A stretch of 33,205 nucleotides of DNA from a virus (Duplodnaviria; Heunggongvirae; Uroviricota; Caudoviricetes), in IMG/VR virus record IMGVR_UViG_2617270988_000009. The stretch is one strand, 5' to 3'. Made by a program: the position numbers and the translations under genes. Each line of letters starts with the position of its first letter. Positions within the stretch are counted from its first letter, which is position 1. The notes below the pieces were generated by a model. The model did not search any database and was not told where the DNA came from. It worked only from the letters and a program-made list of their open reading frames with translations. Positions 32,964 to 33,205 of the stretch are shown in pieces.

Positions 32964-33040
32964 TGGCGCGTTGTACTGGATTCGAACCAGTGACCGATTG
33001 CTTAGAAGGCAATTGCTCTGTCCGGCTGAGCTAACAACGC
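32964..33040 (-). tRNA. tRNA-Arg (anticodon UCU)
   Basis: Reverse complement folds as a canonical cloverleaf: 7-bp acceptor stem GCGTTGT/ACAACGC, D-arm GCTC...GAGC, anticodon loop CTTCTAA, T-arm ACTGG-TTCGAAT-CCAGT, 3' CCA. Confidence 0.85.
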
Positions 33041-33053
33041 AGGATACAGATAA

Positions 33054-33130
33054 TGGACCGCCTTCGGGGACCCGAACTCTGCGCAACCAGCTTCGAAAGC
33101 TGGCGCTCTTTCCTGATGAGCTAATGGCGG
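33054..33130 (-). tRNA. tRNA-like sequence, Arg (anticodon UCG)-like, with a degenerate T-arm; possibly a divergent phage tRNA or pseudo-tRNA
   Basis: Good acceptor (6/7 pairs), D-arm and anticodon arm (CCAGC-TTTCGAA-GCTGG), but the T-stem pairs poorly and the T-loop reads TTCGGGT. Confidence 0.4.
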
Positions 33131-33137
33131 TATGTGA

Positions 33138-33205
33138 TGGTGGCCCTTGCTGGATTTGAACCAGCGACCTGGCGATTATGAGTCGCTCGCTCTCACCACT
33201 GAGCT
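33138..33205 (-). tRNA. tRNA-Ile2 (anticodon CAU, ileX/ileZ-like), 5' end cut by the window edge
   Basis: Reverse complement AGCTCAGTGGTGAGAGCGAGCGACTCATAATCGCCAGGTCGCTGGTTCAAATCCAGCAAGGGCCACCA is nearly identical in layout to the recalled E. coli ileX. Confidence 0.7.

Follow-up and report, generated by a model that had tools for sequence, protein, structure and literature searches.

Is a phage tRNA gene that can no longer form a regular T-arm still a working gene, or is it decaying between two neighbours that are kept? The question is raised by one end of the IMG/VR record IMGVR_UViG_2617270988_000009 (33,205 nt, the whole stretch being referred to here as the window), where an original prediction had described three tRNA-like genes head-to-tail upstream of the late genes: a canonical tRNA-Arg(UCU), a tRNA-Ile2(CAU)-like gene cut by the window edge, and between them an Arg(UCG)-like gene with a poor T-arm, seen either as a decaying pseudo-tRNA or as an unusual functional tRNA.

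The cluster and its prophage

Between them, ARAGORN and Rfam (RF00005, three tRNA matches in this region, gathering score 29) place all three genes, head-to-tail as described and on the minus strand, a point that had not been stated. Their same-strand order is Ile(CAU), Arg(UCG), Arg(UCU), with spacers of 7 and 13 nt and an intrinsic terminator at the end (Table 1), a layout found in phage 933W, and identity to the 933W genes reaches 68/68 for ileZ, 76/77 for argO and 68/77 for argN. Judged from sequence and layout, the three genes are the 3' part of the ileZ-argN-argO operon of a lambdoid, Stx-phage-type E. coli prophage. This cluster is already known, and in that respect the finding is ordinary.

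Table 1. Coordinates, strand and supporting evidence of the tRNA cluster and of other features in the window.
Feature	Coordinates	Strand	Evidence or remark
ileZ, tRNA-Ile2 (CAU, lysidine type)	33138..33205	(-)	Rfam 51.6 bits, E 1.9e-8 (match 33141-33205), 5'-truncated; same as 933W ileZ
Spacer UCACAUA, 7 nt, ileZ/argN	33131..33137	(-)	Direct sequence reading
Degenerate argN allele, tRNA-Arg(UCG)-like	33054..33130	(-)	ARAGORN tRNA-Arg(tcg); Rfam 37.5 bits, E 1.4e-4; anticodon 33096..33094
Spacer UUAUCUGUAUCCU, 13 nt, argN/argO	33041..33053	(-)	Direct sequence reading
argO, canonical tRNA-Arg(UCU)	32964..33040	(-)	ARAGORN tRNA-Arg(tct); Rfam 70.1 bits, E 1.6e-13; anticodon 33006..33004
Intrinsic terminator GGCUCGC-UUUU-GCGGGCC + U8	32932..32949	(-)	Terminator scan; directly after argO
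STnc100-family sRNA	32698-32887	(-)	Full-length match, 132 bits
Terminator of the STnc100 match	32728..32707		
IraM-like anti-adapter gene	32316-32672	(+)	NCBIfam NF007393, 161.7 bits
SASA/DUF1737 esterase	30211-32091	(-)	
Tape measure gene	11574-14816		
gpM-like ORF	11240-11581		
espK, T3SS effector gene	9719-11080	(+)	Directly beyond the gpM-like ORF
Truncation region	8493-14816		
Second tyrosine integrase	3249-4499	(-)	Left of roxA
ORF with Icd-like cell-division-inhibitor domain	1472-2638	(-)	Left of roxA

In the 933W reference record (NC_000924 / AF125520), ileZ, argN and argO follow Q, pR', qut and tR'; a tRNA promoter (pT) is annotated as putative, and a possible terminator lies just before stxA2. 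These genes are said to have been first described by Plunkett et al. in 1999 (J Bacteriol 181:1767). The window resembles 933W in the three genes, their order, strand and spacing class, and in their place upstream of the esterase, lysis and late genes; the terminator closing the cluster is a homologue of what 933W carries under the label 'possible rho-independent terminator upstream of the stx genes'. Whereas the stx operon follows this terminator in 933W, the window has none there, and instead carries the STnc100-family sRNA and the convergent iraM-like gene. Downstream of the cluster, on the same strand, come the sRNA, the esterase and the lysis, terminase, head and tail genes, so that the position upstream of the late genes, as originally proposed, is borne out. 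The upstream side (Q/pR') lies beyond the window end, as does the promoter region: the near-identical locus L001 has TTGCAG-N17-TATTAT, matching 933W pT, and a DNA methyltransferase gene immediately upstream of the tRNAs, the Q gene being absent from its listed features, while in another near-identical locus (L159) an antiterminator Q gene is found upstream of the tRNAs.

The cluster is widespread in E. coli and its phages. A megablast search against GenBank phages matched 311 records, which for the most part are Stx2-converting phages and in several cases name the genes ileZ, argN and argO. Of 5426 complete E. coli genomes, 3337 contain a match to the cluster region, the median being 2 copies per genome and the maximum 16. 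A taxonomic scan of one genome per species with an argN anticodon-arm pattern returned E. albertii and two E. coli-like phage contigs in MAG bins, together with the own tRNA-Arg(UCG) genes of unrelated phyla, and yielded no deeper argN outgroup. No paper naming ileZ, argN and argO together was found in the open-access literature searched, whose coverage leaves out most of the older Stx-phage papers, and the literature search returned no expression data for argN alleles.

Several features of the prophage stand apart from the tRNA genes. The STnc100 match lies directly downstream of the terminator of the tRNA operon and ends in a terminator of its own; in a 2026 preprint, STnc100 is placed in one group with the PasD sRNAs of pathogenic E. 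coli prophages. The iraM-like gene, of a family that stabilises RpoS by way of RssB, is convergent to the late operon and sits between the esterase gene and the sRNA, as cargo where Stx phages have stx. The prophage is truncated: the tape measure gene and the gpM-like ORF are followed by espK and then by the host genes potB, potA, pepT and roxA, whereas L163, a related prophage of O157:H7 inserted at the same position by potB, retains tail gene L, a C40 peptidase gene, ant, nleL and espN in this interval. The second tyrosine integrase and the Icd-like ORF look like another small integrated element or remnant (1472-4499).

Both flanking tRNA genes are, on their predicted structure, canonical and intact. 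The window holds the 3' 68 nt of ileZ including CCA, the first 8 nt lying past its end, and over this length there are 0 differences from 933W, in agreement with the edge-cut gene foreseen. Full-length ileZ (the allele of L001 and 933W) is identical to E. coli K-12 ileX at 68 of 76 positions and the anticodon loop CUCAUAA is common to both, which identifies ileZ as a tRNA-Ile2 (lysidine-type) gene; the RefSeq (PGAP) label of its homologue reads tRNA-Ile. A difference between the two in the acceptor stem is compensated (C6:G67 to U6:A67). Unlike ileX, ileZ is phage-borne and a member of a three-gene operon. The argO copy, recognised from the outset as a canonical tRNA-Arg(UCU), differs from 933W argO once, in a loop, and is the commonest argO allele (56 of 117 loci in the survey described below). 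Of the spacers, UCACAUA is the commonest ileZ/argN variant (64/114 loci), and the haplotype of the second one travels with window-type argN alleles, referred to below as class II.

The middle gene and the alleles of its slot

Read in sense, the middle gene is CCGCCAU UA GCUC AUCAGGAAA GAGC G CCAGC UUUCGAA GCUGG UUGCG CAGAG UUCGGGU CCCCG AAGGCGG U CCA. Its T-stem forms 3 of 5 pairs (mismatches A50·C64 and A52·C62), its T-loop UUCGGGU (33076..33070) has G58 where A58 is expected, and its acceptor stem contains one mismatch (A6·A67), so that neither the full pairing of a 7-bp acceptor and 5-bp T-stem nor the T-loop U54-U55-C56-R57-A58 of a canonical tRNA is present. The poor T-arm with its TTCGGGT loop had accordingly been read correctly. 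By coordinate, the derived defects are A50 (33080), A52 (33078), G58 (33072) and A67 (33063). The T54-A58 reverse-Hoogsteen pair is part of the established structure of the tRNA T-loop, and A58 is kept in ileZ, argO, K-12 ileX, 933W argN, and in nine out of nine unrelated bacterial tRNA-Arg(UCG) genes that were fetched. Normal features are the D arm (GCUC/GAGC), G18G19, the anticodon arm CCAGC/GCUGG with its loop UUUCGAA, U33, A37 and the encoded CCA. The identity elements used by E. coli ArgRS for tRNA-Arg are A20, C35 and U/G36, and on a reading of the sequence the middle gene keeps A20 in the D-loop, C35 and G36.

The copy of 933W argN forms a perfect cloverleaf with no stem mismatches and a T-loop UUCGAGU, in contrast to the three broken stem pairs and G58 of the window copy; the two differ at 9 of 77 positions, of which four break conserved structure. 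The Rfam score of the middle gene lies above the gathering score; it falls short of intact argN alleles by 16-21 bits and of argO by 33 bits, and the predicted cloverleaf of the gene is about 15 kcal/mol above the minimum-energy fold. ARAGORN and the RefSeq/NCBI pipeline label this allele tRNA-Arg without a pseudogene flag. ARAGORN and Rfam neither score the middle gene as canonical nor reject all three genes, the two outcomes that would have spoken against the original prediction.

To what extent is the same slot damaged in related prophages? For a survey, 120 IMG/VR phage contigs were fetched by a pattern whose only anchors were the T-arm of ileZ and the D-arm of argO, which left the middle slot unconstrained and gave 117 usable loci. 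A fully canonical tRNA-Arg(UCG) occupied the slot in 34% of these loci, class III alleles in 26% and class II alleles (the window type, with A52, G58 and A67) in 23%, the remainder showing other damage (acceptor A71A72, 1-nt deletions, U54G, CCA to UCA, anticodon changes); because the sampled loci are related and not phylogenetically independent, these and all other locus percentages and diversities given here are descriptive. In class III the acceptor, D and T arms are kept, the anticodon arm is swapped for an unrelated closed hairpin and the T-loop is degraded, and ARAGORN rejects these sequences. Rfam scores of argN drop stepwise, from 58.4 and 56.0 bits in intact alleles to 54.0 in an allele whose T-loop has G58 but whose stems are perfect (L026), 43.4 in common class II, 37.5 in the window allele and 26.4 in class IV, down to no match in class III, while those of the neighbours remain steady (ileZ 72.5, argO 66-70).

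Class III (L010 2726-2805 and about 30 other loci, e.g. L004, L015, L020, L036 and L090) is the commonest non-tRNA state of the argN slot. The hairpin that replaces its anticodon arm is CGAUAAC-AGG-GUUGUUG, the stems of the acceptor, D and T arms being retained, and a variable G-run (5-12 G) stands in place of the T-loop UUC. Three loci (L097, L140, L143) have the class III anticodon-arm replacement with the T-arm intact, and a diverged relative of this replacement (L149) is called tRNA-Ser(GCU) by ARAGORN. Single-base anticodon changes also occur in genes that are tRNA-like in other respects, from UCG to UCU (L021) and to GCG (L153) in argN, and from CAU to CGU in ileZ (L146).

The window allele itself is rare. 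Its exact 77 nt were found in 2 of 5426 complete E. coli genomes and in one IMG/VR locus (L038), while alleles 95-99% identical to it (class II) are present in at least 855 complete genomes. Common class II argN, an allele of chromosomal E. coli prophages (e.g. locus L001 of STEC388, or O157:H7 strains at ~1.17 Mb), shares A52, G58, A67 and the spacers with the window copy and is identical at 76 of 77 positions, the window allele having one further T-stem change, G50A, that also occurs in L038 and L077. Stx phages carry the canonical argN type in the GenBank phage comparison, and among the 255 GenBank phage records carrying an argN homologue, identity to the window argN never rises above 90%.

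An intermediate state is found in phage Nil3 (L162 368-885), whose argN has A52 but keeps A58 and U67, and thus stands between canonical and class II alleles. Nil3 equals the window across ileZ, argO and ~330 nt downstream: all 11 differences fall inside 90 nt made up of argN and the following spacer, with none in ~408 nt elsewhere, and this confinement marks the divergence as a mosaic recombination patch. Old argN haplotypes have plausibly been swapped among lambdoid prophages, with the near-invariant ileZ and argO serving as homology arms.

Relaxed constraint, probable decay and alternative readings

Constraint on the argN slot is relaxed relative to its neighbours, and decay has followed several distinct routes. 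Nucleotide diversity at unanchored positions is 0.004 for ileZ, 0.024 for argO and 0.078 for argN (77-nt alleles only for the latter), a ranking that is unchanged inside the class I and class II subsets. As a check on ascertainment, the scan was repeated with an anchor in the 5' end of argN (129 loci): ileZ was in its reference state in 95% of them, and argO kept fully paired stems, a canonical T-loop and CCA in 74%, being absent or rearranged in ~9%. The rearranged cases include four argN/argO chimeras (L135, L139, L144, L154), each a single hybrid gene that ARAGORN rejects, produced by a deletion between both Arg tRNA genes at the CCUUC common to their anticodon loops.

At least one further defect accompanies G58 in 63 of 66 argN copies (20 of 22 distinct alleles), against 12 of 51 copies (9 of 24 distinct alleles) with A58. 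Such a contrast is expected if A58G marks argN lineages that have lost constraint. The covariation test on distinct alleles found no compensatory pair change among 35 distinct 77-nt argN alleles, and one compensatory swap (C:G to G:C) in argO; stem pairing over distinct 77-nt alleles, at 95.9% for argN and 97.9% for argO, differs only modestly, so that this test alone does not separate the two genes. The contrast between argN and argO comes from copy-weighted states, the T-loop, the class III alleles and diversity.

These observations bear on what the middle gene is. We consider it, with a probability of about three in four, to be a decaying and probably non-functional argN held between two selected neighbours. 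It has derived, structure-breaking changes without compensation relative to intact homologues, and the slot is under relaxed constraint relative to its neighbours in diversity, intact fraction and number of decay classes, both of which are marks of a tRNA pseudogene. Between the two options of the original prediction, the canonical 933W type, the derived uncompensated changes and the varied decay of the slot thus favour the decaying pseudo-tRNA over the unusual functional tRNA.

The operon is read on the minus strand, would lie between the Q/pR' region and the late genes, and most plausibly serves to supply tRNAs for codons that the host uses rarely and the phage uses in excess, AUA being read by ileZ, CGA/CGG by argN and AGA/AGG by argO. 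With a canonical tRNA-Arg(UCG) as its starting point, the middle gene has gained the T-loop change A58G, the T-stem changes G52A and G50A and the acceptor-stem change U67A. Such changes should disrupt the T54-A58 fold and the helix of acceptor and T-arm that RNase P, the CCA enzyme, EF-Tu and ArgRS make use of; following general tRNA biology, folding, 5' and 3' processing, charging and EF-Tu binding would be impaired, and the RNA would be exposed to quality-control decay. With T-loop and acceptor/T-arm disrupted in this way, the middle RNA is most likely unstable or inactive, and we infer that its function as a tRNA has been lost. Its persistence needs no function, since at 7 and 13 nt from conserved neighbours it is hard to lose alone.

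Could the gene nevertheless still work, as a non-canonical tRNA-Arg(UCG) that is co-transcribed with the flanking genes, processed and charged by ArgRS, and reads CGG and CGA of the late genes despite a weak T-arm? The tRNA-Arg label given by the annotation tools, the score of 37.5 bits above the gathering threshold of 29 and the undamaged D arm, anticodon arm, A20, U33, C35, G36, A37 and CCA all point this way, as does the existence of an allele that combines G58 with perfect stems (L026, at 54 bits). A working argN would also be useful, CGG reaching 15.2 per 1000 codons in the late genes against 2.1 in the host genes roxA, pepT, potA and potB, a small sample of four. Class II alleles are moreover widespread, and their presence in at least 855 genomes, which counts against decay, could also reflect retention. 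On the other side, the T-stem has lost two of its five pairs and the acceptor stem one, with no compensatory change, A58 is replaced although unrelated tRNA-Arg(UCG) genes, ileX, ileZ and argO all keep it, and the cloverleaf lies far above the predicted minimum-energy fold. Alleles with G58 keep gathering damage, with CCA-to-UCA and D-stem changes found even within class II, and class II is absent from the 255 phage records that bear argN. A working tRNA is therefore unlikely, though it is the more credible of the other readings.

Less probable still is that the gene has been rewired into another structured RNA, a tRNA-like spacer with a role in processing, as a decoy or in regulation. In the predicted fold, G58 and A67 build a hairpin UUCGG-GUCC-CCGAA (54-58 with 63-67), and the T-stem that would compete with it is removed by A50 and A52; the minimum-energy fold and the centroid of the window and common class II alleles use this hairpin on a 5-bp acceptor stem (-29.0 kcal/mol), and such a switch is consistent with each of the five substitutions in the 3' half. 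The hairpin was found post hoc, however, its fold has a z-score of only -1.7 against shuffles, and 19-35% of random mutants made from intact alleles with an equal number of substitutions fold at least as stably. It is not conserved in other classes either: its energy is -2.4 kcal/mol in the 933W type, and the L008 type lacks it. No Rfam family besides tRNA matches. As evidence of a selected new fold the hairpin is rejected, since a fair share of random mutants are equally stable and other classes do not conserve it. We give the same very low credence to class II argN, the window copy included, being retained in chromosomal prophages as a tRNA-like RNA with this rewired 3' hairpin and another role, for example as a processing module for the ileZ/argO precursor, a decoy for nucleases that target tRNAs or a small-RNA precursor. 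That the defects are errors of sequencing or assembly is practically negligible as an explanation: nothing specific speaks for it beyond the rarity of the extra G50A, and against it the same 77-nt allele occurs in L038 and in two complete genomes, and an allele one step less damaged in hundreds. Its recurrence in independent records means that the window allele is not a sequencing artefact.

A probably decaying argN in a phage tRNA operon

Decay of argN, the preferred reading, is a known kind of thing for tRNA pseudogenes in phage arrays. The middle gene resembles other tRNA pseudogenes of phage and prophage arrays in its cloverleaf remnant, low covariance-model score, broken tertiary positions and raised polymorphism; unlike such general cases, its decay can be traced allele by allele against an intact reference, in the same frame of two neighbours. 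Two points are modestly new: most sampled prophages have a degraded argN slot, with damage of several distinct kinds, and annotation pipelines continue to label the degraded alleles tRNA-Arg. No literature discussing decay of the argN slot was found, in a search that was thin on older Stx-phage papers. As the middle gene is very probably a pseudogene and is yet labelled tRNA-Arg, tRNA counts of E. coli prophages are inflated for the CGA/CGG reader, a matter of little importance beyond annotation hygiene.

The codons of the window can be set beside the three tRNAs. In the late genes (11574-32091, minus strand), CGG, the codon that a working argN (UCG) would help read, accounts for 81 of 5337 codons. 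Per 1000 codons, AUA is found at 5.8, AGA at 5.1 and AGG at 3.9 in the late genes, compared with 1.4, 0.7 and 1.4 in the same small sample of four host genes, and espK by itself contains 16 AUA codons. Rare-codon supply is a role to which ileZ and argO are suited.

The cluster offers a small example of a phage tRNA operon with repeated decay in one gene and near-invariance in the two beside it, and of alleles being reshuffled among co-resident lambdoid prophages. This suggests that the supply of AUA and AGA/AGG readers matters to the carriers of these prophages, and that the UCG tRNA matters, if at all, only to actively replicating Stx-type phages.
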